A stretch of DNA of 64,000 nt from an uncultured Verrucomicrobiae bacterium. GTDB taxonomy: Bacteria; Verrucomicrobiota; Verrucomicrobiia; Chthoniobacterales; UBA10450. Position 1 is the first letter of the stretch; each line of letters starts with the position of its first letter. The stretch covers positions 668,689 through 732,688 of the forward strand of contig CAVWPA010000001.1 in NCBI GenBank assembly GCA_963756875.1, given 5' to 3'. Of this stretch, positions 3,989 to 31,419 are shown in pieces. Both the position numbers and the translations under genes were made by a program. Under the pieces are notes generated by a model. The model saw only the letters and a list, made by a program, of their open reading frames with translations, ran no database searches and had not been told where the DNA came from.

Positions 3989-3995
3989 TCTCGTT

Positions 3996-4049: not shown

Positions 4050-4053
4050 TGAG

Positions 4054-11014: not shown

Positions 11015-11129
11015 GAAGCCAAATCGTATCATCCGAGAACCCGCAGGGCAAGATTCGCATAGTGAAAGTGCGCAGGGAAGTCAGACGTCAGAAATTCTAA
11101 AAAACTGAAAAGTCCGCCTGCGAAGCGGA

Positions 11130-11580: not shown

Positions 11581-11713
11581 GCGGCGAGTCCGTCCTGTGG
11601 CGGCAGAGCGCCGTGGCTACACCGACGGCCAGGCCAAGAGGTAAGCCGTCTTCTGTGCCGGTCCTCGATATGTAAAAAAGTATGGATATTTATCAATATC
11701 ACTTTAGGTTCTG

Positions 11714-11989
11714 ATGGTGAGGTTTGAATGGGACGAAAAAAAGGAGGCAGCCAACATCGCCAAGCACGGCGTCGATTTCACGGAGGTGCAACGCGCGTTT
11801 TTGGATCCGCGTCGACTGGTTTTCGAGGATCGCGCCCATAGCGGGAACGAGCCGCGTCTGCTGTGCATCGGCAAAACGGCCCGCGGAATTTTGAGCGTCC
11901 GTTACACACGTCGAGACGGACGTCTTCGTATCATCGGCGCGGGTTACTGGAGAAAGGGCAGGAAAATGTATGAGAAAGAAAACGGTTAA
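11714..11989 (+). CDS. BrnT family toxin
   Basis: FEWDEKKEAANIAKHGVDF...EPRLLCIG...RIIGAGYWRKG. Confidence 0.92.
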   Translation: MVRFEWDEKKEAANIAKHGVDFTEVQRAFLDPRRLVFEDRAHSGNEPRLLCIGKTARGILSVRYTRRDGRLRIIGAGYWRKGRKMYEKENG

Positions 11990-12221
11990 ATACACAGACG
12001 ATAAAGGCGAGCTCACGGGCGATTGGCATCGCATCAAGGACGATCTGCCTTCGCCGGATGAACTCGCAGGCGAAATCAGCAAGCGAACTAAAATTACCCT
12101 TGAGCTGGACGATGAGGCTCTGGCGTTTTTCAAACGCGAGGCGAACCGAAGGCACACCAGCTACCAACGAATGATCCGGAATCTTGTCCGATCGTACGCC
12201 AGGGCAGCGTCTTCTCGCTAA
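11970..12221 (+). CDS. BrnA/CopG-like antitoxin
   Basis: KITLELDDEALAFFK...YQRMIRNLV; overlaps the brnT 3' end. Confidence 0.85.
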   Translation: MRKKTVKYTDDKGELTGDWHRIKDDLPSPDELAGEISKRTKITLELDDEALAFFKREANRRHTSYQRMIRNLVRSYARAASSR

Positions 12222-12610
12222 AAGAGCAAAGCGGCAAGCGGTAAGGGCGAAGGGCAGGGAAAAGCCACCAAATTCCAAGCACCAAACCTCAGGGAAACTT
12301 CAAGCTCCAAGCTTCAAGGGTCACGGAGCGGCGGGGATGCAGAGAGGTAAGGGGTAAGGGGTAAGGGCGAAGGGCACGGAGCATGGAGCATGGAGCATGG
12401 AGCGGGGAGCATGGAGCATGGAGCAGGGAGCAGGGGGAAGGCGGAAAAGCATTCTCACAGAAGGCAACGAAGGCAACGAAGGGGGAGGAACGCAAAGCGG
12501 TAAGGGCTAAGGGCAGGGAGCATGGAGCAGGGGGAAGGCGGAAAAGCATTCTCACAGAAGGCAACGAAGGCAACGAAGGGGGAGGAACGCAAAGCGGTAA
12601 GGGCGAAGGG
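12222..12610. repeat. Mosaic repeat block with internal ~80-bp tandem duplication
   Basis: Copy of 11315-11550 with extra GGAGCAT units; ~12428-12508 is repeated at ~12525-12605. Confidence 0.85.
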
Positions 12611-12631
12611 TGGTTCGCGGAGCGCAGGGAG

Positions 12632-12967
12632 CTACGGCGTAACGGACAAGGGCGTTGCCGCGGGGCCTGGCGACGGCGCGGGATGCTCGAAACTGATGCG
12701 GTATTTTGTGACCAACGCGCGCGCGTCATCGTCGCTCTGCGAAACATTCACCAGATCGCGCGCCAGCAGTTCGAGCCCATGCTGGATCTTCTTCGATTCT
12801 TCAACCGCTCGCGTCTGTTGTTCGCGCAACCGCTGACCATTAAGACGCGTCTGGTTTCCAATCCACAACTGCCACCCCAGGATAGCAATCAGGCTGATGG
12901 CGATTAAGACGAACGGGAAAAAACTGCTGCTGCGAATCCGGTTCGGTTGTGACGTCGTCTCGGGCAT
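12632..12967 (-). CDS. Hypothetical bitopic membrane protein with coiled coil
   Basis: TM FFPFVLIAISLIAILGWQLW, Gln-rich helix, Pro-rich tail. Confidence 0.7.
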   Translation of the reverse strand: MPETTSQPNRIRSSSFFPFVLIAISLIAILGWQLWIGNQTRLNGQRLREQQTRAVEESKKIQHGLELLARDLVNVSQSDDDARALVTKYRISFEHPAPSPGPAATPLSVTP

Positions 12968-12978
12968 GGGGAGGGGAA

Positions 12979-13425
12979 TTGTTAGTCGTTATCAGTTATC
13001 AGGTTATCGGTTATCGGAAGAATCTCACAGAAGGAAACGAAGGGCCAAGCGTCAAGGGGTAAGGGCAAGGGAAAGTAGAAAGCAGTCTCACAGAAGGAAA
13101 CTCCGAAAGCTTTCGCGAGCAGGCGAAGGTAACAAAGGGGTAAGTGGTAAGGGCGAAGAAAACGCCGAACGCCGAAGTCAGAACGTTTCTTTGTCTTGTC
13201 ACTCATCACTGTGTCACTTGGGAAGGCAGATCTGCAAAAGAGTTGGAACTTGGAGCTTTGGAATTTCTCTGGTGCTTGGTGCTTGGAACTTGGGGTTTCG
13301 CAGCGCGGCTGCGCGCTGCCTTCGGTTATCTGTTATCAGTTCTCTGTTCTCTGTTTCTCGTCCTGTCTCTGTCCTGTCCTCTGTCCTCTGTCCTCTGTCC
13401 TCTGTCCTCTCCTCTGTCACCTGGG
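12979..13425. repeat. Mosaic heptamer block (TTATC[A/G]G, CTTGG[A/T]N, CTCTGTC)
   Basis: Successive 7-bp-period runs of different sequence. Confidence 0.85.
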
Positions 13426-13432
13426 TGTCGGA

Positions 13433-13699
13433 CTAGGTGGGCGAATTTTCTTTCAGCCTGAACCCGTGGCGAGTAAGTAGATCGCGCAGTGTTTGGTTCT
13501 TTTCGGCCGCTGCGGCAATGTCGCGTACAAGGGTCGTGCCGACCTGCTGGCCGTGAATCCCCTTATTGATTTCTATTTGCTGCGCCTGCAGTTCGACTTG
13601 CAGATCTTGATTTGATTTGCTGGAAACGATCACGGCGCCGCTCAGGCCGACACAGATCAGGCCGAGTATCACTGCGAAAACAAATTGCCAGCGAGCCAT
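13433..13699 (-). CDS. Hypothetical bitopic membrane protein with coiled coil
   Basis: TM WQFVFAVILGLICVGLSGAVIV then Gln-rich helix. Confidence 0.7.
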   Translation of the reverse strand: MARWQFVFAVILGLICVGLSGAVIVSSKSNQDLQVELQAQQIEINKGIHGQQVGTTLVRDIAAAAEKNQTLRDLLTRHGFRLKENSPT

Positions 13700-13752
13700 T
13701 GAGAGGAATTAAAGAAAAAAGCGGAAGTTAGAAAAGGAAAAAATAGGCGGCA

Positions 13753-13935
13753 GGGAGCACGGAGCAGGGAGCAGGGAGCAGGGAGCTGGGAGCTGGGAGC
13801 TGGGAGCTGGGAGCTGGGAGCTGGGAGCTGGGAGCTGGGAGCTGGGAGCTGGGAGCTGGGAGCTGGGAGCTGGGAACTGGGAACTGGGAGCTGGGAACTG
13901 GGAGCAGGGAACTGGGAGCTGGGAGCTGGGAACTG
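13753..13935. repeat. Tandem heptamer array GGGA(G/A)C(T/A), ~26 units
   Basis: Directly visible GGGAGCT run with GGGAGCA/GGGAACT variants. Confidence 0.95.
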
Positions 13936-14354
13936 CCAAGCAGAAAACGCCCAACTCCGAAAGCTTTGATTCGTTTGCTGCCCGCTCTCTCACCCTCGCC
14001 CCTCGGGTTGTATGATCTATGTCGCGGTGTCCCCACTCGCTCCATTCGCGAGCAGGCGCTCAACGCCGAACGCCGAAGACCGAAACGGATTTTTCACAAA
14101 AGTAAACGAAGCAAACGAAGGTCGGAGATCGGACGTCGGAGGTCAGCTTTCGGCGGTCGGATCGAAGTTCGTTGCGGCGAGGGCGCCGCAACCAACACCC
14201 GAGGCGGGTGTGCTCCCCGGAAGCGGAGATCAGAAGGTCCTATCCAGCCGCGAGCATCAAGCATCAAGCGCCTCTCCGAGCCCCTTAGCCCTTACCGCTT
14301 TGCCAGCGTTGTTACCGCTGGAATCGCAGGCGACACGCCTGCCTCTACAGGGTT

Positions 14355-16268
14355 TTAGTGCGCGGGTTGCGTTTCCTTGGGAAGAAAGGCGCGCTCTTCG
14401 GGGAGGAGCTGCTCGGGATGGAGATGGGCGAGCTCGGCCTGGGCTTCTTTTTTCTCGCCCGCTGCGAAGAGCACTGCCGCGTGCACTGCAATGGCCGAGG
14501 GACTCACCGCATTCTTTGGGACCGTCAGGCCCCGGTAAAGCGCCAGCGCAGTGAACGGACGGTTTTGTTTCAGAAGCGCCAGTGCCAGCAACGTCCGATG
14601 CGGAAGGCTGGCCGGTTCCTCTTGCACGAGTTTCTCGCCGAGGCGCTCAATCTCTTCCAGCTCCGAAGAAGCTGAAAGAGACTGGTTATCAGTTATCGGT
14701 TCTTTGTTATCAGGAGGCTGGCTGTCCTCTGTCCTCTGTCCTGTGTTCTCTCTCCGAGCCGTAGGCTCTACAGAGCCGGAGGCTGTCTTCTCCGTCGAAT
14801 CCAAGAGCAGCAGCCGCGTGTACGCTTCGTCGTTCTGCAGGCCGGTGTCGTTAGGCCAGATTTTCAACAAGTCCACGAGCGCGGCATGGATCTTTTTCGT
14901 GTCGCGACCTTCATAAATCGTGCGCAACCGCCCCAGCTGTGCCGCGCGCGATTTGGGCGAGATCGTTGCCGCGGCATCGTAAGCGGTCGCCGCCACCTGA
15001 TGCGCGCCGTTTTTCTCGGCGTAATCGCCGAGCATCAGCAGTTTGTTCACGTCGCCGGCTGCATCCTCGACCGCGCGTTGCCAGTTGTTATCGGCCCCTT
15101 TTTGCTGGCCTTGCTGCGCGTAACAGCGCGCCAGATACATGTCCTGAATCACCTGATCGAGCGGGAACCGTTCGTTCTCGAGAATTTTTCGAATGTCGTC
15201 CCAGCGGCCGAGCGCGCCGAGCGCGTCCACGTGTTGCAGGAAAAGCTCGCGCGTTTGGGTGGCGCGAGTGAGCGGAACGGTATCGAGAATACGCTGATAT
15301 TCGCCGCGCCGGTAAAGCCAGGCGGACAGCGCGTACAAATCTTCGTTGCTCGCGCTTTTCCAGCGATCGATCGCGCGCTGCTCGATCTCTTGTTTCTGTT
15401 CGGGGTGCTCCGAAATATCGAGGTCCACCGCGATCAGCTTGTGCGCAATTTTCGCCCGCGGATGATTGTCGATGTCGTGAATCAACTGGTCGATTGGGAT
15501 CGGCGACGAAACTTTTGCATTAGCCGGCGTCGCGAGAACGTGTTGCGCGGTCACGATGAGCGCGTCGAGCGAGACATCGTCGTCGCCCTTGGCGAGCGCG
15601 GCCATGCGATCGCCAATCTGTTTGGGATCGCCCACCAGACTGGCTCCGCCGTTCTGGCCTACGGTGTCGAGGACGATTACCGCCCGCAATTGATCGCGTC
15701 GCGTCGCGCCCTTATCGGCCAAAACTCTTTGGGCGAGCTCGCTGGCTCGGTCGAACCGGCGTTTATCCAAAGAAACTTCCGCGGCCAGGAGAAGGTCCGC
15801 CGGGGCAGGTTTTGCGCCGGGATATTTGAGCAGATGTTCGACGGCGGTTTCCGCGGCGGCGAGATCTTTCACTTTTATCGCGAGCCCTGCTTCGTCGCGC
15901 AAATCCTGGCGGGTGAGCGTTGTCACCGCCGCCAGATTTTTCCAAAACTCGAGCGCATCCGCCTGTCCGGCGCGCGACAGCAAACGGGCGACGGCGCGAA
16001 GAGCCTGCGGCTCGTTAGGCTGGAGGCGGTACGCGGCGGTGGCTTCGTCCCGGGCTTCGCGCCATTTCTGTTGATCGAGGAAAGTAAACGCGCGCGCGGC
16101 GTGACGCCTTGCCTGCCAGCTTCGGATTCCGTTTCGCACGGGCCGCGCCACGAGAACTCCAACGACCGCGACGATCACCACGGCCAGCGCGATGAAGAGG
16201 ATCCGGCGGCGTTTGCGTTTTCGATAACGCAGCTCTTCCGGGGTGAGCATGAAATCGCTTTTTGCCAT
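14355..16268 (-). CDS. Membrane-anchored TPR-like protein
   Basis: Basic N-terminus, TM, helical repeats ([23 protein letters not shown]); repeat-derived insert near the C-terminus. Confidence 0.8.
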
Positions 16269-16525
16269 GAAGGGAAGTTTTAAGTCTTAAGTTTTAAGCT
16301 TTAAGTAGAACCGCGGATTTCCCGCCACGGCGGGCATGGCGAATGACGAAAGAAGAAGAGAGAAAACGCCGAACGCCCAACACCGAACGTCCAACGTCCA
16401 ATGGAAGACCAAGAAATGACGAATGGCGAAGGAGATCGCAGCCGACACGGCTGCCTCCACAGCGGCAACAGAAAAGAGGAGAAAGGCACGGATCAAAAAC
16501 TCTGGAGAAAGGTCGTTTCCGGATT

Positions 16526-18268
16526 CTACTTTGTTTCGATCAGATTGGGAAGAAGCTTGGCGAATTGCTGGTCGGCGATGGAATCGTCGGCCTCCGGGGG
16601 TATCAACATGATCAGTTCGAACACCTGTTGGCCGCGGTTGCGGATCCCGTTTCGCACGACACGCCAGCGGTCGGCCCAATCCCAATTGGAATACAAGCCG
16701 GCGGCTGCCCCGGCGCCCATTTCCGTTTTGTGAGCGACATCTTCGTGCAGAGTGAAAAACGCGACGGCGTGCAACGGCGGCCCGCCGCGGTTTGGCTTGA
16801 CGAAATCGAATCGCCGGAAAGGAAGGGATCGATTCGGACCAACAAGGTAACTCTCGATTCGAGCCTTCCCCACTTCTCGCCAGCCGGCCGCCGGCAGACA
16901 GATGTCCGGCCGGTGCGCGCGCGCGCGCAAAATGGTTCCGCTGCCGGGGTTCCAACGGAAGAAGAAAAGATAATCAACGGCGGAACGGGGCGCCGCGGCG
17001 GGGCTGTTTTCTCTCGGGGTCCAGGCGACTTCGCGGCCCGAATCGAAGCGCAAAATGTTGCGCACTTCGCTGTCGATCTTTAGCTCGCGATAGCCCGGCT
17101 CATTGTTTGGCCATCGCACAGACCATCCGGGCCTGACGACCAGGTCGCGTTCGTGGATCCGATACCAGAACTCCGCGCCAATCTCGGCTACGATCACCCA
17201 CAAAAGGAGAGCGGCGGAAAAGTAGAAAGTAGAACGTAGAAAATTGAAACCCGAGGCTAACCTCCGGCCTCTGACCTCTGGCTCCGGCTCCGTAGAGGCG
17301 ACGCCTCGGAGAGGCTTCTGATCTCCGTGCTCCAAGCTCCCAGCTCCCGGCTGATGATGCGTTTTCCACCGCGACGCGATCCACATTGTCCCGATAAAGA
17401 CCAGCACCACGATGGCGTAACCGGCGACATCGTGCCACCGGCTGAGTGCGGCGAGTCCGTCGGCCGACGCGATCCACACCAAAAAAGTCGCGCGCAAAAA
17501 ATTGGCGAACAACGCGATGGCGACCGCGCTGGCGATGAGAATGAAGCGGGGACCCAGGCGCAACCGTTTTAGCTCGCCGAAAAGAAGACCGATAGTCAGC
17601 GAGGTTTGAAGCGAGCGCACACCGCTGCAGGCTTCGTTCACCCCGACCAGTCCGTGCGGAAGCGCGATCAGGTTGCCTTGCACTTCCGCGGGAATGCCGA
17701 ACAACGCCAATACCTCGGCCGCGCTCGCCGCGATGATGCGCATGAGACCTTGCACAATCGGTTCCTCGATCGGCGTCGGCCACGGCACCGCCACGAAAAA
17801 GAAGAGCACCGGAAAACTGAAATGGCGGAGCCAGCGTGTTCCGCCGGCAAGATAAATCATCGACAGCGTGATGGTCGCCACAGCCGCGACGTGCACCCAT
17901 CCGAGCGGCCGCCAATCGGCGCTGCCGATTTCAAAGATGCGCAGCGGCAACAAGATCAACGCCGCGCCGATGATCAGCGCAATCGCTGCCGATTTGGGAT
18001 TTGGGGTTTGGGGTTCCGGGTTTTACCGGCTGGGCCGATCTTCCCAACGCAGCCAGAACAGGTATGCCGCGAAGAACGGGACGAACCAGCCGTAGTTATA
18101 TTGTTCGTTAAAACTCCATTCGTCGCTGAGATACCGGCAGACAACGAACCAGAGCGCGCCGAGGGCGAGCACGAGGAGAATAAAGGTCGTACGGTTGGGC
18201 GCGCGATCGGTTGCGACCAAATTTGTGCTGCTGGCAGACTCTACGGCGGATTGCGCGTCCAAGCCCAA
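16526..18268 (-). CDS. Exosortase fused to EpsI-like C-terminal domain (frameshift near 18020; start approximate)
   Basis: EWSFNEQYNYGWFVP, FAVPWP-like motif, VNEACSGVRSL (catalytic Cys), ANFLR, WHD; C-terminal HRPDICLPAAGW. Confidence 0.88.
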
Positions 18269-18444
18269 ATCATACGATGATTCTGCGTCCACGAAAAACG
18301 GAAATAGTTGTCGCTTGTAGGGCGTGTGTGTCAAACGCCTGCAATTACCCACTCTGGTTTCAACATTGGACGTTGGGCGCCTGCCGCGCCGTAGCCTTGC
18401 GAAGGAGGGTTCGGCGTTGGACGTTGCAGCTGAACATTTCTCAA

Positions 18445-19332
18445 GTGCTTCCCACTCAACAGATTCTTGGAATTCGATTTTTCGACGGGAACGTCGATCA
18501 GGCGGTCGATCGCATGTTTCGCGACGGCGGATTTCTAGTCGCGCCGTCCGGGACTTGTTTCGCGCGGTTGCGCCGCGACGCGGCGTATCGCGACGCGGTG
18601 ACTCAGGCCGATGTCGCGATTCCCGACAGCGGCGCGATGGTTACTTTCTGGAAACTTTTTCGGGGACGCGCGCTGACCCGCATTTCCGGGCTGAAATATC
18701 TTCAACATGTGTGCGCGCGATTGTTTGCCGCAAAATCGCGAACCCTTTGGGTCCTGCCTAACGAACGCGCCCTGCAAAAGACCATAAAATGGTTACGTAC
18801 AAATCAATTCGCAATCGACCAGGACGACTTTTACATCGCGCCAATGTACGCCGAGCCGGTGCAGGACCCCGGCCTGCTCGCACTGATCGAAACGCGCAGA
18901 CCGGAGCACGTGATCGTGGCGATCGGGAGCGGCCCGCAGGAAAAGCTGGGCCATTATTTGCGCGATCGTTTGAGTTACCGGCCGGCCATTCATTGCATCG
19001 GCGCTGCGCTCGGATTTCTGACCGGCGACCAGATCAAAATTCCCGACTGGGCGGACCGGCTTTATCTTGGCTGGTTCCTTCGATTGCTTGCACAGCCGCG
19101 CGTTTTTATTCCGCGACTGACGCGCGCGGCACAATTACCGCTGCTCATTTATCGCTATGGAGAGAAATCCGCCGCCGCTCGCGGCAGCGCAGAGGACAGA
19201 GGACAGAGGACAGAGGACAGAGGACAGAGGACAGAGGACAGAGGACAGAGGACAGAGGACAGAAAACAGCTGACAAAAGACCGGGAAAGACGAAGTAACA
19301 GGCTATGCAAATCGAATCAGCAAAAGATTTGA
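18445..19332 (+). CDS. WecB/TagA/CpsF family glycosyltransferase
   Basis: QILGIRF, ADVAIPDSG, RISGL, IGSGPQEKLG, CIGAALGFLTG..IPDWADRLYLGWFLRL; the tail is translated AGAGGAC repeat. Confidence 0.88.
   Translation: MLPTQQILGIRFFDGNVDQAVDRMFRDGGFLVAPSGTCFARLRRDAAYRDAVTQADVAIPDSGAMVTFWKLFRGRALTRISGLKYLQHVCARLFAAKSRTLWVLPNERALQKTIKWLRTNQFAIDQDDFYIAPMYAEPVQDPGLLALIETRRPEHVIVAIGSGPQEKLGHYLRDRLSYRPAIHCIGAALGFLTGDQIKIPDWADRLYLGWFLRLLAQPRVFIPRLTRAAQLPLLIYRYGEKSAAARGSAEDRGQRTEDRGQRTEDRGQRTEDRKQLTKDRERRSNRLCKSNQQKI
19191..19263. repeat. Perfect (AGAGGAC)x10 array
   Basis: 70 bp exact repeat at 19191-19260. Confidence 0.95.
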
Positions 19333-19688
19333 ACGTGTACAAAATTGCGTATGAGCTCGCGATGGAGATTTTTGAAGCCACGAAAGGATTTCCGGTTGAA
19401 GAGACGTATGCCCTAACGAGCCAGATTCGCAGGTCTTCAAGATCAGTTTGTCTGAATTTGCGTGAGGCATGGGCAAAACGACGTTATGAAGCTCACTTTC
19501 TGAGTAAGCTGACTGATTGTGATGGAGAAGCGAATGAGACAGATTCTGCGATCGATTTCGCGAAGGACTGCGGTTATATCCCACACGACCAGCATGAAAC
19601 GCTCGTCGCCAAATGCACGGAAGTGCGCCGAATGGTCGGCGGAATGATAAACAAGCCCGAGGCCTTCATTGTTCCGGGGAAGCTGTAG
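19305..19688 (+). CDS. Four-helix-bundle protein (23S rRNA IVP / TIGR02436-like)
   Basis: DLNVYKIAYELAMEIF...FPVEETYALTSQIRRSSRSVCLNLREAWAKRRY...DGEANET. Confidence 0.93.
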   Translation: MQIESAKDLNVYKIAYELAMEIFEATKGFPVEETYALTSQIRRSSRSVCLNLREAWAKRRYEAHFLSKLTDCDGEANETDSAIDFAKDCGYIPHDQHETLVAKCTEVRRMVGGMINKPEAFIVPGKL

Positions 19689-19733
19689 GAGCATTCGTGT
19701 AATGACGGCATTCCGGTTTGGTATCGTGCTTGC

Positions 19734-19790
19734 CCTCTGTCCGCTGTTCTGCCTGTTTTCTGTCCTCTGTTACCTGTCCTCTGTCCTCTG
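19734..19790. repeat. Degenerate (GTCCTCT)n array, reverse complement of 19191-19260
   Basis: CCTCTGTCCGCTGT...GTCCTCTGTTACCTGTCCTCTGTCCTCTG. Confidence 0.85.
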
Positions 19791-19792
19791 GA

Positions 19793-22133
19793 ATGAACAT
19801 CCTCGGCCTTAACGCTTACCACGGCGATTCCGCCGCTTGTTTGTTTGTCGATGGCAAACTCGTGGCCGCGGCCGAAGAGGAACGCTTTCGGCGGATCAAG
19901 CATTGGGCCGGTCTGCCCACGAACGCCATCGATTATTGTCTGCGCGAGGCGCAATTGTCCGTGGCGCGAGATCGATCATATCGCAATCAATCGCAAGCCA
20001 GGCGCCAACAACCTGCGGCGGCTGGGCTTCGTTGTTTCCCGCTGGCCGCACCCGAAATTGATGCTGCAGAAAATCCGGAACATTCGCAGCGCGGCCTCCA
20101 TCAAGGAAACGCTGGAGAAGGCGTACGGAATCGAGCTGAAAGCCCAGGTCCACCACGTCGAGCATCACCTCGCGCATCTGGCTTCGGCGTTTCTCGTTTC
20201 CGGATTCAACGAGGCGGCCTGCATCTCGATCGACGGGTTCGGCGACTTTGCCAGCACCGCATTCGGGTTCGGGCGCGGCAGCGAGATCAAAATCGACAAC
20301 CGCGTTTATTTCCCGCACTCGTTAGGCATCTTTTATTCCGCGCTCACCCAGTTTATCGGATTCCCGAATTACGGCGACGAATACAAGGTGATGGGACTGG
20401 CGCCTTACGGTGAGCCCACGTTTTTCGAGCAGATGCGCGAGATCGTTCGCATCCGGCCGGATGGCACGTTCCGGTTGAATTTGAAATATTTCCGGCACCA
20501 CAGCGACAACGTTTCTTACACGCTGGAAAGATTGCGCCCCGGAAGTCGGACCGCTTTACCGGAAAGAACTGGCCGATCTGTTAGGGCCGCCGCGAAAACC
20601 GGACGAGCCGCTCGAACAAAAACACAAGGACATCGCCCGTTCCGTCCAGACGATTTACGAGAAAGCGTTCTTCGAGTTGCTGCATGCGCTGCACAAAAAA
20701 CATCCGTCCGATAATCTCGCGTTGGCTGGCGGTTGCGCGATGAACTCGGTCGCCAACGGCAAGGTGTATCGCCGCACGCCGTTCAAGAAAATGTATCTGC
20801 CTGCCGCGGCCGGCGACGCCGGCGGCGCGATCGGGGCGGCCGCTTTTGTCCAATGTCAATTGGGCAAAAGCGAAGAAGATCGAAGTTCGAAGAATGAAGA
20901 TGGGTCCTCCAGCCGCCGAGCTGCCGTCTCCCAGCTACCAACTTCAACGGCGGTGTCCGCCTGGACTCCGCGATACTCTCGGCTCCCGAAGCGACACCGG
21001 AAGAACTGCACGCGCTGGTCGAATGGAAGAAAAAGGAGATCGCGGATGCCGGTTGCCCCATAGCGCTGATCACTGGTGAAGAAGAACTGGTGCGCAAAAC
21101 CGCGCAGGCCATCGCCGACGGAAAAATCGTGGGCTGGTTTCAGGGACGAATGGAATGGGGACCACGCGCGCTGGGGCACAGGTCCATTCTGGCCGATCCG
21201 CGCCGGGCCGACATGAAGGAAATTTTGAATGCGAAGATCAAACGGCGCGAATCGTTCCGGCCGTTTGCGCCTTCGATTTTACGAGAGGCGGTCGGGGAAT
21301 GGTTCGAACAGGAGGACGACGTTCCGTTCATGATGGAAGTGTTCCAGATCCGGCCGAAACATCGGGAGCTTATTCCCGCGGTCACGCACGTCGATGGGAG
21401 CGGCCGGTTGCATACCGTGACCAGGGAAACCAACCCGCGTTACTATGGCGTGATCGAACATTTTCGCGATCTGACCGAGGTCCCGATGGTTCTCAATACG
21501 TCGTTCAACGAAAACGAACCGATCGTCTGTTATCCGGAAGAAGCGCTCGAATGCTTCTTGCGGACGAAAATGGATGTGCTGGTGCTGGAAAACTTTTTCC
21601 TGGATCGAACCGGCGACGAGGGCGGGGAGGGCCAAGGGCAAAGAGCAAAGGGCAAAGAGGAAGCGGAAGGGCAGAGGAAGAAGCAAAGGGGAAAGAGCGG
21701 TAAGAGCGAGGAGCACGGAGCGAAGAGCGCGGAGCAGGGAGCGAAGGGCAAAGAGGGAAGCGGTAAGGGCGAAGAGGAAGAAGCAAAGGGCGAAGAGGGA
21801 AGCGGTAAGAGGGGAGCGAGGAGCAAGAGCACGGAGCAGGGAGAGAAAGGCAAAGAAAGCGAGAGCAAAGAGGAAGAAGCAAAGGGCGAAGAGGAAAGCG
21901 GTAAGGGCGAGGAGCGAGGAGCTAAGAGCACGGAGCAGGGAGCGAAGAGCAAAGAGGAAAGTGCAAAGGGCAAGGAAGAAGGAGCGCGAAGTGGCGAGCA
22001 GCTTCCAAAAGCAGAGGCGAAAGAGCAGGGGACAACCACCGAAGATAAGCGCGAGACGAAAACTGAGGAAGCTCCGATGAAAAAAGCCGAGCCGGAACCG
22101 CCTGTGAACGAGCTCGAAATCGGCGGCGCATGA
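19793..22133 (+). CDS. NodU/CmcH family carbamoyltransferase (several frameshifts) with low-complexity C-terminal extension
   Basis: MNILGLNAYHGDSAA..AAEEERF, HHLAHLASA, DGFGD, EYKVMGLAPYG, AGGCAMNSVANG, GRMEWGPRALGHRSILADP, KRRESFRPFAPS, NTSFNENEPIV. Confidence 0.9.
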
Positions 22134-22160
22134 GTTGGAACGACTTTAGAACTCAGCGAT

Positions 22161-22334
22161 ATGGAAAACTACCTTAAGGAGATGCTGGTAATTTTGACCG
22201 ACTCGAAGGTGGAATTTGTTGTAGGCCGGGGGGCCTGTGTTCTTCATGGGGTGGAACGCGTTACACTCGACCTCGATATTGCACCAGCGGCAGACATGGC
22301 GAGACCTCCGGAATTCAGTTTGCAGTCAAACTGA
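22161..22334 (+). pseudogene. Truncated nucleotidyltransferase (N-terminal fragment)
   Basis: Manual translation MENYLKEMLVILTDSKVEFVVGRGACVLHGVERVTLDLDI: degenerate GGxA..HG..RxTxDxD NTase motif; stops after 57 aa. Confidence 0.6.
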
Positions 22335-22354
22335 AGTGGTGGGATAATCCCACC

Positions 22355-22585
22355 ATGACGTTAACCGCCGACAGCAAGAAAAGAGTCGTGCTGCCCGGAG
22401 CGGCGCCCGGTGATGTTTTTACATATGAGCAGACCAGTCAGGGTGTGGTCCTGCGGCGTATTTATCGTCCTGAGCCCGGGAAAAAAAGGATGACCAAAAA
22501 ACAGGTTTTGGCGGAGATCCGAAAATGGAAAGCTCTCCGTGGCGTGAAATGGGAGGAGCTCCGTAAGCTCACCCGAGAGCCGTGA
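22355..22585 (+). CDS. AbrB-like antitoxin
   Basis: TADSKKRVVLP...PGD...GVVLRR; overlaps the PIN gene. Confidence 0.7.
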   Translation: MTLTADSKKRVVLPGAAPGDVFTYEQTSQGVVLRRIYRPEPGKKRMTKKQVLAEIRKWKALRGVKWEELRKLTREP

Positions 22586-23001
22586 TCCTGCTGGACACGA
22601 ATATAGTGGTCGATGCGCAGAATGAAGCGTCGCCTTTCTTCGAGCGGACCAGGAAGCTAATCGTCGAAGCCGTCGTCTCCACAGGCGCAGCCGTAAACAC
22701 GGTGATTTTGGCGGAACTCTGCGCAGGAAAGCGCGATATCGCCGACTTGATTCAATCCGAACTGCGTCGAGGAGGCGTTCAATTTTTCGATTTGCCCGCG
22801 AATACAGCGCCAATCTGCGGGGACGCTTATCGTAAGTATCGACTTTCAAGAAAAAAGTCGGCTGGAGGTAGCGCGCCAACAATGCCGTTGCCGGATTTTT
22901 TTATTGGCGCGCACGCGGAACTGATGGGTTGGAAACTGGCGACGCGCGACACGGAACGTTACCGGCTTTACTTTCCAAACGTGCAGATTATCGAGCCTTG
23001 A
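22582..23001 (+). CDS. PIN domain (VapC-like) toxin
   Basis: ILLDTNIV, LAEL, LPDFFIGAHA, LATRD..RYRLYFP. Confidence 0.92.
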   Translation: MILLDTNIVVDAQNEASPFFERTRKLIVEAVVSTGAAVNTVILAELCAGKRDIADLIQSELRRGGVQFFDLPANTAPICGDAYRKYRLSRKKSAGGSAPTMPLPDFFIGAHAELMGWKLATRDTERYRLYFPNVQIIEP

Positions 23002-23189
23002 GTGGGGCGATTGCGCCGCGATCGCAGTTATCCGTTATCGGCCTGCCATCGGACGGCCCCGAAAGCTTTCGGGGTTAACGGTTATCGGTTGCCGAGTTCA
23101 AAGCAGGGGAAGGGATTTAAACAGTCGCCACGGCGACTTCGTCAGACAGAAGGAGAAGACCGCTTAAGTCCGCGGTACTGCGCGGGCGC

Positions 23190-24224
23190 CTACTCGGTTG
23201 AAGAGCCGGAACCGGACTGTTCCAAATTTCGCGATCCGGACGGGTTCAAGGCATAATCGATAAAAACGGAGTGTCTGTCACCGTCGGTTCGAATGCTCAC
23301 GCGTCCGTAGGTATGCGACTGATTGAGCACGAAATAGAACTTTTTCGCGAAGGCTACCCCTTCCATACCGTTTTGGACATGAAACGAATATTCAAGCGTC
23401 GGCTGATAACCGGTTTCAGGTGCCTTGAACGGAAATTCGTCGGCATGCTCAATCAAACCGCCGCCCGGCACCGAAATTGAGATGCTCCAGTCATACGGAA
23501 ACCGCGGCTGATGAGGTGGTGGCTTCGACACATTGAGAACCAAGTGGCCATCGGGCGATTCACGGCCGGTAAACAAATCTATCCGAGCCGAACGATTTTC
23601 CCCAAAAGGAATCGAAGTGCTGATTGACTTCGCAATTAGGTCTTTGGTTCCTTCTTTTTTCCGCAACTGAAATATCACCGGCGCATTCGGGCTCGGAGTG
23701 TAAAAGATCTTCTCATACGGGTTGGCAAATTCATAGCTCATTTCATTTGCCTGAGTGGGTGTGTAATAGCCATCTTTTGAGACTCGCACCTCCAAACGTT
23801 TGCCGTGCGTACCCGTCAAGGAGAATAACCCTTGCGCATCAGACGTTGTTTCGGCTCGGGAGGTACCGCGCGGCGAAATATCAGTCCACAGAAATTGAAC
23901 TTTCGCATTCGGTACGGGTCGCAATTGCTCGTCCACCACCTTACCATAGAATCGAATCGGAACTTTCCATTCCCATTGGCGATCTTGGGCATGGCGGCGT
24001 GTTACTTCGTCTGCGACTTGTTGCTTCGAAAGCGATCTGGCATCTATTTGGGGGTAAGCATTTGTCGGGCGGAATATCTTGCCGGCAGCGTCTGTTAAGC
24101 GTCTCGTCGAAAGATGCGCACGCTGTTTATGGTTTGGGTAATCTCGCTCGCGTCGGAGTCCGTACAGGATGAAACCACCAAGCGCCACTAGGACCAGCAA
24201 GACGGCGATCCAGTACTTACGCAT
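23190..24224 (-). CDS. Exported hypothetical protein with carboxypeptidase-regulatory-like domain; candidate immunity protein
   Basis: N-terminal TM; FYGKVVDEQLRPVPNAKV...TSDAQGLF...VSKDGY; starts 1 bp after the upstream stop. Confidence 0.7.
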   Translation of the reverse strand: MRKYWIAVLLVLVALGGFILYGLRRERDYPNHKQRAHLSTRRLTDAAGKIFRPTNAYPQIDARSLSKQQVADEVTRRHAQDRQWEWKVPIRFYGKVVDEQLRPVPNAKVQFLWTDISPRGTSRAETTSDAQGLFSLTGTHGKRLEVRVSKDGYYTPTQANEMSYEFANPYEKIFYTPSPNAPVIFQLRKKEGTKDLIAKSISTSIPFGENRSARIDLFTGRESPDGHLVLNVSKPPPHQPRFPYDWSISISVPGGGLIEHADEFPFKAPETGYQPTLEYSFHVQNGMEGVAFAKKFYFVLNQSHTYGRVSIRTDGDRHSVFIDYALNPSGSRNLEQSGSGSSTE

Positions 24225-24225
24225 A

Positions 24226-27200
24226 TTATTGTCGAAGCTCTCCCACTATCTGGCTGTAAAATGGGTTCAGTATTTGAATTGGACGTTCAAATTGGCCACT
24301 GTGATCTTCCACGTTCGCTCCAAAATTGCATATTGCCTTGAGGCTTACCGCCGAGTTAAAAATTGTCACGTTGTTGGGCTCGGCACCAGCAGCTTTTGAC
24401 CGTGGTCGAGCAACAAATGCCATGGATTCGTGAATATCGTTTACTGGCCGCGTGACAAGGTAGTCTCCGGACAAGGTGCGGCTCCAGTTCAAGGTCACTC
24501 GTTGGCCGATTGGCTGGTCGCTCGCGTACAGATAATCACCCGCCGTCGAATCCTGATCGTTAAACCTGTTCGGCTTGTAATCGATTTCGTTTTGTTCCCA
24601 GTTTGTTTCAAACGGCCAGCCGGGAACGATGCCGATTGTGCCGGTCGCCAGTGCATAATCGTCAACATTATAGAACGAGATAAATTTACCTGCGTTCAAT
24701 CCGGTTGAATACAACCGATAACCGAGATCGTTCCCCGAATCGGGTGTTGGACTAGTCTGTTCTGCGGTCAAAAACGGTGCGTAATTATTGACACTATCGT
24801 TGAAGCAGCCCGCGGGAATGGCCGCCTGCATCAGAAAATATCGATCAACGACTCATTCCACGCTTGAGCGCTGACGTGGTAACGATGTTGCCCATACTGT
24901 GGGCGGCGACGTTGATGGTGTAGCCCGGAAGTTGATTCTTCAGGTAGTTCTCGACATAGCTGGCCAATGATTTTCCGTATTTCCAGGCAAGCCATTCGCT
25001 GGTGTTATACGAATCAAATGACGTCTGGGTGGCCCACCGAAACGCGGCGAAACGTCCCTTGTATCCCTGCCACCAAAGGCGTTTAAAGAATGTTTCGCTG
25101 AAGCTGATCGAATCGTCATAACTCATTCGCCAGCCATGAACAAAGACGAGACACTGCGCTTCCTCATCGGGCGCTTGTTCAAAGTGCGGATTGACGTCCA
25201 CGGTGTAGTAGATCTCGCTGTCATCGAACGTGCTGTTTGAGGATGTGTATGGAAGGGGTCCAACGGGTCGGGCGTTGCGCTCGCTCGTTGGTACATCTTC
25301 TTAATATTCTTCAGCTCCAGCCAGACGCTGCTGCCTTCAGTCAGCTCGTTGCCGTCGCGGTCCAGCAGAACGACTGTCAGTTCGCCTTTGCCTTCGTGGA
25401 CTCCTTCGAACAGCAGACATTTCCTGGGGTTCTGAGAGCTAAGACCGTTCCAAAAATCGCTCTTAAACAAAAAGACACCGTTTGGGTCGACTGTTATTCG
25501 GTTGTTTTGGTCGGTAATGGCGTTGTTGAACACGCCTTGGATCTGCCTTGCCGCCGCGGCTTGGTCGGTAAGGTAATTGTGTCGAACCGTCACCATCTTC
25601 AGAGGGATAAATGTTAATCGCCGGCGCGTCCGACTCGACCGTTTTCCATTTCAACCCAACCTGGATGTCGCCAGCCAGGACTTGATCTTTAATCCCGGTC
25701 AAATTGATCCAGAGACGCGCGAAATCCTCGAGGTTTCGATGGGTCACGATATGATATTGCGAGTAGTCCGGCTGAAGAGGAGGTACCTGCTCTGTTCCAA
25801 TAAATGACGGTTCCGTGGTCTGGTAATCGATTTCGGTGTCATCGTCATCATTCAACCAGAATCGGTACGGTCGATCCTCACTTGTCAGATCTTTGTTGTG
25901 AATGGCGCCGTCGGTGATCGACATTTCACCGTCTCGATTTCCGTCTACCATTAACTCGCCGGCAAGAATCTGGATCCCGTAATATCCCGGACGATCGGGA
26001 GTCAAATAGTAGATGTCTGTCTCGGTTCCGGTTCCTTCCCAGCGACGCACCGTTTTTATGGGAGTGCCGTCTTCCTGCTCCGGTGTTCGCTGGTCGTCCA
26101 GAGGATAAAAAATTTCGATCCAGGAGATCGATTTTCGATCGGGCAAATTCGGACTCGGGCTCCATTTGAACTGATAATTAGAGTGACTGATATAAACGCC
26201 TTCCTGGTTGCCCGGCAGAAACTCGAAATCGGCAAAGATCGCGTCATCGTCGATGGTAGGAGGGGCATCAAACGGCGGAATGGCCGGTAACGCGGCGCGG
26301 GTGCGACCGATCAGTTCGTCCGTCGTGTACTCTTCGCTCAAGGTCGTTCTTTCTTCAGCAGTGGCCTGCCAATCGTCGATCAAGTTGGGCGGATCATCGT
26401 ACGCGCCGCCGTCCGCCTCTGCCCCGAAAAACACAGTCAGGCGATCAAACCGAAAGGTCGCCGTCGGCGCAGGGTCCCAATCCATGGACCCGTAGTAGGG
26501 CGCAGGAGCGTTGCCTGTCGTCGTGGTCTGCTGCTCTCCCGTATCCGGATCGACGTTCACCTCGATGGTTCCATGCACGGGGCTTTCCGGATTGCCGCCC
26601 ACAAGATCGATGATCATTTCACTTTTCAAATAGTAGGCCGGCGGTTGGGTCGGAACGAACGGCCGCAGTCCCGTTTTTCGCTTTCCTACTCCGCGACTGC
26701 GATTAAGCATTCTCGGATACGGCACGCCGCCATCGTAATAATCATTGGCCATGCCGCCCGCCTGGAACTCCTCTAAATTACTCAGGCCGTCGCCGTCGAA
26801 ATCGCCATCGCCCGTTTGGCCGAGGTTTCCGAAATTCGCCATCTCCCACTCATCCCCTAATCCGTCGCCGTCGGAATCGTGGTCCACCTCCACATATCGC
26901 GGCGCAGATACGGCCTGTAGCTCCCTGCTCGTCGACCGCCCGTGCTGTCAGGATAAACGAGCCTGCTCCGCTTGGTTGCCAGACGACTGTGAAAGGGGGC
27001 TGCGTGCTCGCACCGATAAGAGTCGATCCTTCGTAAAACTCTACCATGACGACCTGGCCTTGCCGATCCTGCGCCTGCGCTTCAACGGCGACATTCTCTC
27101 CCGCAATAACTCCGGCGTTCTGCAAGGGAGCGACAAGTTCGACCTCCGGAGGCGCGTTCGCCGTGGCCGTGGCGGGAATCTCCAGCATGCTTTGGTCTGC

Positions 27201-30200
27201 GTTTGATTGCACACGCAGCAACCCGGCATAGTTTCCATCCGCCAAACCGGAACCGTCGGCGGTAACCATTACTTCGGCCGTTCCGCCGGGATCGATCTCA
27301 CCGTTCGCGGGCGATACCTGGAGCCAGGAATTGTCACGGCTGAGCCGGACAGCGAGACCATCCCTGATGTAAGGCTTTTCAAACGCTACTTCTAAGCCTT
27401 GATCCTGCTCCAAATTCTGCAGGCCCACGGACGCGGCATTGAGTGTGCCGGTCATCGATTTGTACCTGAAACGTTATCGCGCCGGTTTCATCGAGCCGGA
27501 TCTGGAATGTCACCGGTCCGCTGCCGTCGTAATGGGACACCTGATCGAACTGAATGACCGTGTGATCGGAGCTATTTAAATAACGAACCTGTCCGCCGGC
27601 CGCGGGATTGAGATCGGTGTGAAACGCTGCGATCTCGCCCGGTGCGGCTTCGGTCCCGGGAAAGGAACCTGGACCAGGGTTGCTCGAGCCCGACCCGACG
27701 GTTACGAATCCGTCGCTGCTGACGTAAATTCTTGTGTAGAGACTTCCAAAAAACGGAAAGCTAAACGGCAGATCGATCGCCTCGAAATCGTCATCTGACT
27801 GGGACACGACCGAAAGCACCGTACCCGTGCTGGTAATGTCGTCCCACTGATAGACAGGGCCATCCGCCGAGTTGGAATCCTTGAACGAGTAGGATAACGC
27901 GTCTGTCTCGCAGGCAAAATCGAGGGGGAGCGGTCCCGTGTTGTGAAGAACGACGTTTTGAGACTGCGTGTCCGGTATGTTCAGAGCGAAGCTTAAGCTC
28001 TCGGGTGTCGCCTCCAGAAATGCATCGGCCTTTTCGGTGAACGTGACAGCCGCAGTTTGATTTCCTCCCGCGTGAATCTCGGCGACGACCGACGACTTTG
28101 AGCCGCGCGTTTCCGGTGCGACCAGGGAAACAGATCCCTCACCGGATGCATTGGTGCGCACCTGGAGCGAGGGCACCGGGTTGCTGTCATCCCCGGCGAC
28201 GGCGCCGCTACCGGCCCCGACATAAAAATCCACCGGAGCGTTGGCCAGGGGCGATCCCTGTGGATCGCTTACCAGGACGGTTGCGGACAACGGCAGCGTG
28301 GATCCCGCCGGTCCATGTTGATTGTCTCCCTCCACAATCGTGATATTCGGCAGGACGCCGTTGAAATAGTCCGCCGGATCGGACCCATTCAGGTATTCCT
28401 GCTCATTCGTTAGGCCATCGCCGTCGAAATCGTCGCCGCCCGTCTGGTCGAGATTTCCGAAATGCTCCAGTTCCCAGACGTCCGGCAGACTGTCTCCGTC
28501 GCTGTTCGTCCACACGATCAAATGCGTCGCGTTCGAAAGAGCAGTCGAATTGCGGTCGTCAGTCGCGCGCGCTGTCAAAACATGGTTGCCAGCCGGCGGA
28601 GACTGCCAGATACAACTAAAAGGCGGGGCTGCGGCTTCGCCGATTAATTGGTCGTCAGCAAGGAACTCGACCTTTGTCACGACGCCGTCTTCATCGGAAG
28701 CATCGGCCGAGACAGTGAGCGCCTGGTTCTCGAGACACTCGAAGTTGTCCGGCGGGAAAATAATTGCCGATTGCGGTTCGTGATTCACCGTCAAAGTAAC
28801 CGCCACCGATTGAAATGGCGGCGTTGAACCATCGAGCGACAACGCCAATTGCCCATTGTAAATCCCGCTCGGGAGATTTGAGGTGTCGAAGGAGACAGTT
28901 ACCGGTTGATTCTGGGCCGGATCGAGAGTCCCTGCTTCCGGCGAAACGGCAAACCATTGGCTCGCGGTGATAACACGTATCGCCATGTTCGAATGCAGGT
29001 AATTCTGCCCGTAGGAGACAGTCAGGCCTTTGTCGCGGGTTTCGTTTTGAATGCCCACGGTAACGTCGTCCACAACCGCAGGAACATCTTTGTACTCGAG
29101 ATCGATAACGCCGTCGCGATGCAGGATAATCTCGAAATCGACGATATCGTCGTCATCCAGCCGCGCGACATGATCAAATTGAATGATGCTCCGATCGGTT
29201 TCGTTCTGGTAATAGATCGCACCCGGGCCTTCCGTGGTTAGGTCCACGTGAAATCCGGCAATCTCATTGGCCGGCATGTTCTCGCCGGGTAATGGATAAT
29301 TATCGTACTGGTCGGAGCCTTCCCCGAACGTGATGAAGCCGTTCGAACTGACAAAGACAGTCGAAAAACTCTGGCCGAAATACGGAAAAGAAAACGGAAG
29401 CTCGAAGCTCTCGAACCTGTCGTCGGCTTCCGAAACACTGGAAAGCATCGTCCCGGTCGTCTTGATGTCCTCCCATGTGTAAGATGGGCCGGACGGCTGA
29501 TCGGAGTCCGTGTACGCGGGATTCTCGATTACATTATCGACGGGGGTTATCTGGAACATCGAAGGCAAAACCGATGTGTTCGTCAGCGTGAGCAACCCAT
29601 CCGCGGTTTGGTTGGCATTGAGAAGCATGGAAATGCTTTGCGGCGAAAGTTGCAGCGGCATTACCGAGTCGGAATCGTTCGGATCGGTTCCGCGTTGATA
29701 CTCCTCCAGATTGCTAACGCCATCGCCATCCGCGTCTCCGGCGGCGTCGTCCGTCGTCGGGTCGAGGTGATGGACAAATTCCCATTGGTCCGGCATTCCA
29801 TCGCCGTCGCTGTCAGGATCTGAGTCGCTCGTCCCCAGCTGGTTCTCTTCCCAGGCAGTCAGACCATCGCCGTCCTGGTCGATGTCGCCTGCAAGAAGTC
29901 CGCGATAAACGATCACGCCGGCGCCGGGTTGATCAGGGCGCGGAACGGGAGTCTCCACGACGCCGCCCGTTCCCGTGATCTGAGTACCAAAACTCGACCA
30001 GCCCGAAAGATCGTTGCTCGACTGAATCTGGTAAAGCTTGCCAAAAGCGGTGTGGATCAAAAGCTTGAACGTGTTCGCGTCGTCGCCCGGCCCGAGCTCC
30101 AGCGGAAAAGCGGAATGCGGGTCGTGCGGATCGGTCCCCAGCGCGCTCTCCTGTCGGTTGGTCAATCCGTCTCCATCGTCATCGCCATCCGCGGCGCTCC

Positions 30201-30402
30201 CGTTCACACCATAAATCCTCTCCCAAACGTCGCTCAATCCATCCTGGTCCAGATCGATCGCATCGACGCTGAGCAGTGCGCCACTGAACAAAGCGGCGCC
30301 GAACACGGCGCACAGCTTGCCCAACTTCCAACCCCTGGTGCGCGTCGCCCATCGTCTCCGCCGTCGTGCGGGAGAACCTGAGCGTATCTGGTTTCGCGGC
30401 AT
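24226..30402 (-). CDS. Giant secreted protein (~2000 aa if frameshifts are errors): Asp-rich Ca-binding repeats, duplicated nidogen-like/Ig modules, C-terminal alpha/beta hydrolase
   Basis: Five co-oriented ORF fragments; DxDGDGxxDxWE repeats; two LPFSFP(Y/F)FG..VSS(N/D)GF modules; VFVHGW..KRLWWQGYKGRF..AAHSMGN. Confidence 0.78.
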
Positions 30403-30738
30403 GGTTCAAAATAGGACCGCCGACGATAGTGAAGTCAGGCGTTGCCCGACAAGATGATTTCGTTCGTGAACGCCAAAAGTTATTCACAATGGACTTCGTT
30501 TTCCGACATCCGAACTCCGAAAGCCCGCCCTTAGCTTATCCCTTCAAAAATCTCACAGAAGATAACGCATCCAGCCCGTAGGCTTTCCTGGCCGGAGGCG
30601 AAGGTAACAAAGATCAGATGATCGCTGCATCCAGCCCCGAAATGCTTCGGCGTTGTCATGCTTCGCAGAGGACATCCAGAATCGAGCATCTGCCCCGCCA
30701 AACCCATCCGCGAAATCCGTGTAATCCGCGGTTAGATC

Positions 30739-31265: not shown

Positions 31266-31419
31266 TCTCGCGTTTTCCGCTCAGGCTTCGACGTTTTCTT
31301 CGCCCCGGCTCTTACCGCTTACCGCTTCGCGCTTGGCATTGCTAATCCCGAAGGCTTTCGGGGCCGTCCGCTGGCAGGCCATTAACCTATAACCGGTAAC
31401 TGCGCGTCTGCGTGGACCC

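Follow-up and report, generated by a model that had tools for sequence, protein, structure and literature searches.

Gene-less hairpin elements of 23 to 79 nt within the intergenic repeats of a Udaeobacter-like Verrucomicrobiota genome

Among the small repeats described in bacteria, the kinds closest to the 23-nt hairpin element treated here (E1) are the repetitive extragenic palindromes (REPs), with the bacterial interspersed mosaic elements (BIMEs) and the REP doublets forming hairpins (REPINs), and the small dispersed repeats (SDRs) of Nostoc. The SDRs of Nostoc and its relatives, which Elhai et al. are said to have described in 2008, reportedly measure 21-27 nt, lie nested in one another and in tandem heptamer repeats and hairpins, and show signs of recent mobility with no known enzyme. 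The HUH (Y1) enzymes of the IS200/IS605 insertion sequences and of the RAYT group (REP-associated tyrosine transposases) read hairpins and carry out insertion into single-stranded DNA (ssDNA). The ends of IS200/IS605 and the palindrome-associated transposable elements (PATEs), whose ssDNA hairpins are recognised in this way, are inserted in one orientation by a short target, with neither target duplication nor terminal inverted repeats; elements derived from IS200/IS605 possess two different subterminal hairpins and measure at least 100 nt. According to Di Nocera et al. 2013 (PMC3733652), the tag, GTAG or CGTC, defines the REP super-families, other palindromes regularly harbor members of some REP families, and Opitutus terrae (Verrucomicrobia) is rich in GTAG REPs. 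Our literature search found no paper treating the intergenic repeats of Udaeobacter. Here we describe E1 and the small elements that accompany it in a stretch of 64,000 nt (the window) from the genome of an uncultured Verrucomicrobiae bacterium.

The genome under study (G000; relatives bear other G numbers) consists of three contigs, C1, C2 and C3, with a total of 2.69 Mb and a G+C content of 57%, and the window occupies C1:668689-732688; positions given below without a contig are those of the window. The isocitrate dehydrogenase of G000 shares 86-89% identity with its counterparts in Chthoniobacterales, Candidatus Udaeobacter and Spartobacteria metagenome-assembled genomes, which places the lineage among the Udaeobacter-like Verrucomicrobiota. 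For comparison we used 18 other genomes of the same family, all from different genera, and 12 genomes of other families in the order; G002, G007 and G014 are unpublished genomes. An earlier reading of the window, hereafter the original prediction, had held that two distinct mini-elements were inserted at the same position of one carrier repeat, with a third level of nesting nearby.

The 23-nt element E1 and its hosts

E1 (CTCCGAAAGNNTTCGCGAGCAGG) is 23 nt long and contains no gene. The genome has 43 copies at up to four mismatches, against none in a shuffled genome, and 31 copies at up to two mismatches. E1 exists in 14 of the 18 other family genomes (12 of 16 without the unpublished G007 and G014), with 1-56 copies in each, and in none of the 12 genomes of other families; a reversed E1 pattern, searched as a control, gave no match in 31 genomes. 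The copies are single, apart from direct pairs in a few relatives.

The junctions of E1 follow a narrow rule. In all 31 copies from G000 the element is immediately preceded by A, which in 21 of them has another A before it, and the base after the element is C in 25. Among 50 copies read from the relatives, A precedes E1 in 43 and C follows it in 46. When 45-nt flanks on the two sides were joined, 19 of 36 E1 copies could be aligned across the junction to E1-free sequence elsewhere in G000. Because these uninterrupted counterparts span the junction, the host flanks are complete repeats, and nothing has been duplicated or lost at the site. E1 was found in at least five unrelated host repeats that have uninterrupted counterparts. 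Tandem arrays (AACGCC and CCAAG) serve as hosts, as do the arms of the carrier repeat described below, GTAG-type REP hairpins, which hold E1 in their loops, a CTAACCAGG...AA|CTGGC element and a pseudo-tRNA. In arrays, E1 lies on the AACGCC strand in every case, and no copy was found on the GGCGTT strand. Exact unit boundaries, uninterrupted hosts, the junction bias and a fixed orientation to the host are established for E1, as is its spread through the family.

E1 is predicted to fold as CTC-CGAA/TTCG-(C)-GAG, that is, as a stem of 3 + 4 bp with one bulged C. The variation among 81 copies falls on positions 8, 10 and 11, in the predicted loop, and on positions 21-22, in the unpaired tail, and the stem is almost invariant. 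The tail reads C(A/G)GG, or CCTG on the other strand, and no T-run is present 3' of the hairpin.

One E1 context, (A)CCTAACCAGG..GAGCNAA[E1]CTGGC, is present in three genera (G000, C3 1532323 and 1543787; G012, L028 and L030; G017, L033), and E1-free paralogues of it exist in G000. It may be conserved as an element lying upstream or downstream of the genes of one family.

Independent insertions of E1 and a nest of three levels

A pseudo-tRNA upstream of tRNA-Met(CAT) forms an orthologous locus in two genera, represented by G000 (L005, C1 541.0-542.0 kb) and G006 (L003). In both genomes its anticodon arm has been replaced by a CCC(C)GAA..TTCGGGG hairpin (CCCGAAAG..TTCGGGG). G000 has E1 in the D-loop, on the minus strand (GCTCAGCGG^...^TAGAGC), G006 has it in the replacement hairpin, within the loop and on the plus strand, and each genome shows the other's site empty. 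Removal of E1 from both loci raises the identity over 176 columns from 77.5%, with 22 gap columns, to 87.5%, with 2 gap columns. E1 was thus inserted independently at one orthologous locus of two genera. Downstream of the pseudo-tRNA, G000 has two tandem units, each composed of a small open reading frame (ORF) and the 3' part of a tRNA with the same CCCGAAAG..TTCGGGG hairpin.

Differing occupants of one slot were found in a tandem triplicate at C3 5.1-5.9 kb. Its copies are near-identical over about 190 nt, and their differences are concentrated in the E1 slot, which in one copy is taken up by a 42-nt form differing in loop and tail and in the other two by the 23-nt form.

The third level of nesting, which had been placed at 13956-14055, proved to be present, and the sequence split by it is E1 itself; the inner piece is 79 nt long, not about 75 nt. 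All parts of the nest lie on the plus strand. The host, level 1, is an AACGCC-type array whose left part (13940-13954) forms the AAAACGCCCAA side and whose right part (14057-14078) forms the CGCTCAACGCCGAACGCC side, and the joined flanks keep the period of the array, as they do at other arrays with E1. At level 2, E1 (13955-14056) is divided into a left half, CTCCGAAAGCTTT (13955-13967), and a right half, CGCGAGCAGG (14047-14056), which join to the exact 23-mer of 13101. Level 3 is E4, of the form GATTCG...CTATGTCGCGG...GCTCCATT (13968-14046), placed in the E1 loop between T13 and C14, at GCTTT^CGCG. Immediately upstream of the nested E1 there is a long heptamer array of GGGAGCT/GGGAACT units (13750-13935).

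E4 is also a dispersed family, with about 14 copies of 72-79 nt in G000, and its core was found in 10 of the 18 other family genomes (the unpublished G007 and G014 included) and in none of the 12 from other families. Seven of the approximately 14 copies are in the loop of the GTAG REP GTAGGGCGTTT^CTGYGARACGCC, at TTT^C (junction form GTAGGGCGTTT^CTGYGA), and 11 uninterrupted copies of this REP exist. In all 11 aligned E4 copies TT stands before the element and the element ends in TT followed by C, a pattern in which a 2-nt duplication and a TT borne by the element look alike. In the 3' hairpin of E4, ATGTCGC...GCTCCAT, compensatory changes affect the two inner pairs, both bases of which have changed in 4 and 5 of the 11 copies, respectively. 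Four tandem units of about 143 bp, with one E4 copy apiece, occur at C3 1738564-1738992.

The carrier arm, its interruptions and the E5 family

Viewed across the genome, the carrier motif is one arm of an inverted-repeat element of 100-130 bp that resembles a miniature inverted-repeat transposable element (MITE). The uninterrupted arm reads TCACAGAAGG(A/C)AACGAAGG, and can also be written TCACAGAAGGNAACGAAGG(NAACGAAGG). In the window only solo arms exist, all on a single strand. The intact carriers that had been proposed at about 11167, 11500 and 12455 are there (11166-11193, 11499-11526 and 12455-12482), and two more were recognized, a local duplicate of the third (12552-12579) and an arm of one unit (13025-13043); all five are on the plus strand and were both read directly and recovered by pattern search. 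Arms that have diverged further are present at 5780, 10407 and 14094. The carrier pattern at up to two mismatches gave 10 matches in the window, all on the plus strand and three of them second-unit overlaps, and none in 100 shuffles.

Complete carrier copies are clustered on C2 (9.5-10.9 kb) and on C3 (5.1-5.9 kb), and further ones were found in the soil metagenome loci L186, L191, L126 and L128. At C3 1550843-1551158, two carrier arms enclose about 300 bp of other modules. A carrier pattern allowing 0-30 nt at the junction gave 12 matches in G000 and single matches in three of 100 other family genomes. By eye, no consistent target duplication was seen at the complete copies, and no parent insertion sequence was identified, no search aimed at one having been made. 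E1 is family-wide and the carrier is lineage-specific; therefore, E1 entered the carrier arms within this lineage.

Interruptions were measured as the spacing from CACAGAAG to the second 9-nt unit, which is normally 13. The genome-wide tabulation of insertion offsets proposed with the original prediction gave 27 uninterrupted arms with a spacing of 13 and six interrupted arms (spacings of 36, 36, 36, 37, 46 and 55), and all six are broken at one junction, the first AA^CGAAGG of the arm. Since three of the six are tandem duplicates, they represent four independent loci.

Two of the interrupted arms are those of the window, which had been predicted to be split at the same point. Both are indeed divided at AA^CGAAGG and resume with CGAAGGTAACAAAG, on the plus strand. 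The left part of the first arm, TCACAGAAGGAAA (13088-13100), breaks after ...GGAAA; insert 1 is an E1 copy, CTCCGAAAGCTTTCGCGAGCAGG (13101-13123), standing after A and before C and measuring 23 nt, not 22, since the string in the original prediction leaves a C over; and the right part, CGAAGGTAACAAAG, follows at 13124-13137. The spacing to the second unit of this arm is 36 instead of 13, and the joined flanks match the uninterrupted arm. The left part of the second arm, TCACAGAAGATAA (30553-30565), breaks after ...GATAA and is followed by insert 2 (E2), a sequence of 33 nt, CGCATCC...GGAGG (30566-30598). The arm then resumes at 30599-30612 exactly as at 13124, its spacing being 46, and the same 14-17 nt stand to the right of both inserts. 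That both inserts end in AGG before C was confirmed by direct reading.

A second family, E5, shares the junction of E1. It is 33-35 nt long and consists of the hairpin CCCCGAANNNNTTCGGGG followed by CCGTCC..CGGCAGG, so that it starts with C(C/T)CCGAA and ends with GCAGG, as E1 does. Its junctions have the form AA^[C...GCAGG]^C in four kinds of host. Copies were found in AACGCC arrays (C3 1334392, 1346547 and 1550911, with a variant at C2 4586), at TAA^CCG in a CCGATAAC array (33 nt, 23042-23074, minus strand) and in a CTCTCAA array (C2 23751). Another 33-nt copy, at 31346-31378 on the plus strand, is the closest relative of insert 2, and an E5-type element with the hairpin CCCCGAAAGCCTTCGGGG and a tail ending in GCAGG lies at 11117-11151 on the minus strand. 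A 22-nt tail pattern recovered six E5 copies in G000 and none in 30 relatives, and E5 is therefore considered young.

The core of insert 2, CCCGTAGGCTTTCCTGGCCG, agrees with the E5 copy at 31346 in 17 of 20 positions, a match that only one in 1000 shuffles reached, and with E1 in only 13 of 20. From this resemblance, insert 2 appears to be a decayed or rearranged element of the E5 type. A degenerate CCCCGAA..TTCGG hairpin 60 nt downstream of insert 2 (30627-30660, plus strand) has the 11-mer GCATCCAGCCC in common with it.

The surroundings of the first interrupted arm are themselves repetitive. Between 10.9 and 14.4 kb of the window, small genes are separated by spacers of 0.4-0.8 kb that consist almost entirely of short tandem arrays (GGTAAGG, GGAGCA, AACGCC, CCAAG and GGGAGCT) and small hairpins. 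The genes include a BrnT/BrnA pair at 11714-12221, with repeat-filled spacers on both sides, made up of a BrnT toxin (79 bits) and an antitoxin resembling CopG, and two short minus-strand ORFs with no family match. One order of modules recurs at window positions 11000-14400 and at C3 1550780-1551300: GGTAAGG arrays, GGAGCA arrays, GGCGGAAAA, and then a carrier arm or an AACGCC array. In these mosaic intergenic modules one strand is purine-rich, and the pattern is often mirrored further along. An Rfam scan of the whole window found no family at the gathering score, and at E-values up to 1 the region 10800-14500 gave two chance matches to long non-coding RNAs and nothing else.

Modes of spread and relation to known systems

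We consider it probable that E1, E5, the 42-nt form of E1 and E4 are gene-less hairpin mini-elements that have been inserted as exact units into other repeats. Insertion would occur in one orientation and without visible target duplication, E1 and E5 entering just after A (usually AA) and before C, and E4 entering at TT(T)^C. The landing sites would be DNA that readily becomes single-stranded or folds back on itself, that is, palindrome arms of short tandem units (AACGCC, CCAAG, CCGATAAC and the carrier NAACGAAGG) and REP loops. The first AA^CGAAGG of the carrier would be one such landing site, and E1, its 42-nt form and the E5-like element may all be found there for that reason. Mobility, now or in the past, might depend on an enzyme that recognizes the hairpin and the unpaired GCAGG tail on ssDNA, in the manner of the REP and IS200-type HUH systems. 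With exact hairpin units, a fixed orientation, no duplication, a target of one or two bases and landing in loops or palindromes, the anatomy fits a hairpin-reading insertion into ssDNA.

A more specific proposal can be put forward only tentatively. E1/E5 and E4 might be layered elements, 23-79 nt long and coding for no protein, that home to fixed junctions (AA^C and TT^C) within hairpin loops and the palindromes of tandem arrays and are served by an enzyme that is neither encoded next to them nor one of the neighboring RAYTs; they would then form a separate class of REP-like ssDNA mini-transposons with a GCAGG tag, older than the genera of the family and still turning over. Continued turnover is suggested by the differing slot occupants in recent duplicates and by the restriction of E5 to G000.

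Several results weigh against insertion as the general explanation, or narrow what it explains. The E1 hairpin alone is weak (-2.8 kcal/mol) and no better than those of shuffled sequences (z -0.16). In IS200-type elements a lagging-strand bias is expected; the orientation of E1 (19 plus, 12 minus) is unrelated to the local GC skew. Insert 2 has no other copy in G000, by three 13-14-nt probes at up to two mismatches and by BLAST, and a 28-mer from it, searched at up to three mismatches in 101 genomes (G000 and 100 other genomes of the family), recovered the window copy only. Because their ends and hairpin core are in common, the supposedly distinct inserts 1 and 2 belong to one superfamily. The shared offset, moreover, stems largely from the general AA^C(G) rule, for which the arm offers two or three sites, and the chance that four independent loci fall on one of them is about 0.04-0.13 by simple counting, which is suggestive but weak. 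Of the original prediction that distinct elements share a site-specific mode of insertion, what stands is a site-preferring insertion of related mini-elements, borne out by the A^C rule and by E5, with the same junction and GCAGG end; that two unrelated elements are involved does not follow from elements alike in ends and hairpin core.

The carriers of the soil metagenomes also bear on this question. In the scan for them the search pattern fixed the offset, so it is no test of scatter among insertion points, and most of the at least 117 stretches found are chance matches; among the matches listed, three are complete elements in which E1, or a 24-mer resembling it, occupies the carrier junction (L186, L191 and L126). 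One E1-bearing carrier has the same E1 variant as one G000 copy, which leaves room for an inherited E1-bearing subfamily as well as for re-insertion.

Shared descent would be the corresponding alternative: one old E1 event in a carrier arm that spread as a MITE subfamily, with insert 2 as a decayed or converted version. It accords with the three tandem duplicates among the six interrupted arms, with the complete metagenome MITEs that have E1 in one arm, one of which shows the E1 variant (AACG) of C3 5888, and with the right flank CGAAGGTAACAAAG common to both arms of the window. However, the interiors of the E1-bearing MITEs are mutually unrelated and their E1 nearly identical, the differences within the tandem triplicate are concentrated in the E1 slot, and insert 2 is closer to E5 (17/20) than to E1 (13/20). 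E1 is moreover found in at least five unrelated hosts with uninterrupted counterparts, and at two different sites of the orthologous pseudo-tRNA locus. We therefore regard shared descent as an unlikely account of the interrupted arms.

Another explanation, which we think improbable, is that E1 is a functional site, either protein-binding or a hairpin for RNA processing or termination, that is maintained by selection and copied from repeat to repeat, either through gene conversion or through template switching where short homologies exist. Such a role would agree with the near-invariance of E1 across genera, its low to moderate copy numbers (1-56 per genome), the confinement of changes to the loop and tail, the recurrence of the CCTAACCAGG...AA[E1]CTGGC context in G000, G012 and G017, and the absence of any enzyme among our findings. 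On the other hand, conversion at random microhomologies would not be expected to give precise boundaries without scars in many hosts, or junctions governed by a single base, the hairpin has neither a T-run after it nor an Rfam match, and the occurrence of E1 in either orientation at the pseudo-tRNA locus argues against a strand-specific RNA role there. Chance resemblance in low-complexity DNA, the inserts being merely divergent stretches between purine-rich tandem units, is suggested by the mosaic of short tandem arrays around them and the uniqueness of insert 2, but we regard it as highly improbable: it is contradicted already for E1, E4 and E5 (E1 is absent from a shuffled genome, its reversed pattern from 31 genomes and the carrier from 100 shuffles), and it would be conceivable for insert 2 alone, whose E5 match is reached by one in 1000 shuffles.

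Returning to insertion of hairpin units, we looked for an enzyme among the Y1 transposases. A RAYT-like Y1 transposase gene (156 aa; Y1_Tnp, 24.8 bits) occupies window positions 3518-3988, minus strand, and is a candidate by context only, with no link to E1. There are six Pfam Y1_Tnp matches in G000, including this one, and two more loci were found with the window protein as the query. Four of the six genes are flanked by REPs of their own, and canonical GTAG REPs surround the RAYT-like genes. E1 itself shows no link to these genes. At none of the six loci does E1 occur within 260 nt of the Y1_Tnp gene, none of the Y1 genes of G012, G017, G004 and G009 adjoins E1, and in G012 and G017 the nearest E1 is at least 1.7 kb from the Y1 gene. 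Homologues of the window's RAYT-like protein (E-value up to 1e-10) are missing from the E1-bearing G004, G006 and G018, and are present in the E1-free G002 (unpublished), G011 and G013 and in six of the 12 genomes of other families, all of them E1-free. The HUH/RAYT chemistry that had been proposed for these junctions is therefore left without support in the sequences compared, either from adjacency of E1 and Y1 genes or from a matching occurrence across genomes.

Some further features of the Y1 loci may be recorded here. A double-hairpin unit (GGGACGACC..GTCGTCCC, ATTAATTTC, GGGGACGGGACAGCGCCCGTCC) stands on both sides of the RAYT-like ORF of the window, within 3450-4050, in the same orientation and not inverted. 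At about 22-27 kb of C2 (L014), a MetH-like open frame of 1538 aa contains an in-frame RAYT-like (Y1_Tnp) segment that is bordered by repeat-derived peptide stretches, and long Y1_Tnp open frames also occur in G017 (1514 aa), G004 (1236, 1347 and 919 aa) and G009 (1078 aa). A recombination of the integron attC/attI type was also considered, from the GCCCAA^C target of E1. Integron cassettes have a GTTRRRY core and G^TT joints on either side; for E1 the fit is confined to the A^C side, the opposite end reading ...CAGG^C and not ...AA^C, and this candidate was rejected.

What makes these elements noteworthy is their very small size, the clean junction rule, the nesting on three levels and the lack of an identifiable enzyme. 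An element of 23 bases is near the lower size limit for a mobile unit, and E1 keeps a one-base junction rule and an almost unchanged sequence in the different genera of a soil lineage that is abundant but uncultured, the Udaeobacter-like Chthoniobacterales. With a hairpin, a GCAGG tail and the target AA^C, it would be a clean substrate for studies of movement, and it bears on how the unusually large, mosaic regions between the genes of these small genomes arise.

The carrier is comparable to MITEs such as Nezha, NEMIS/Correia and RUP (listed as background in PMC3733652): it is 100-130 bp long, within the 70-300 bp of such elements, has terminal inverted repeats of about 28 nt and no ORF, and is both dispersed and clustered. 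It differs from them in that its arms are themselves built of 9-nt tandem units. The positions of E4 and E1 in REP loops recall IS1397 and other insertion sequences directed at REP hairpins (cited by Bertels and Rainey 2011, PMC3116915), but E4 and E1 measure 23-79 nt and encode nothing.

E1 resembles REPs, as these are described in PMC3116915 and PMC3733652, in several respects: REPs are extragenic, form several families per genome and make up mosaic intergenic regions, and as imperfect palindromes of 20-40 nt with a short conserved unpaired tail they may be comparable to the predicted fold of E1. However, the tail of E1 is CAGG (CCTG on the other strand) and not a GTAG or CGTC tag, its units are single where REPINs are inverted doublets, and it does not flank RAYT genes as a REPtron would or co-occur with them across genomes; its strict single-base junction rule is a further difference. 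Because it departs from REPs in tag, doublets and RAYT adjacency, we class E1 as a REP-like variant and not as a REP. Either the RAYTs accept untagged hairpins in trans, or a different enzyme is responsible.

Like IS200/IS605, E1 is inserted in one orientation, on the 3' side of a short constant target and with no duplication of it. This situation differs from that of IS200/IS605 in that E1 has one 19-nt hairpin plus 4 nt in place of two different subterminal hairpins, a target of one or two bases and no strand bias by GC skew; a second small hairpin may be present in E5 and in the 42-nt form of E1. With the SDRs of Nostoc, as these are said to be, the phylum and the sequences differ, but the size and the nesting of E1 are alike.

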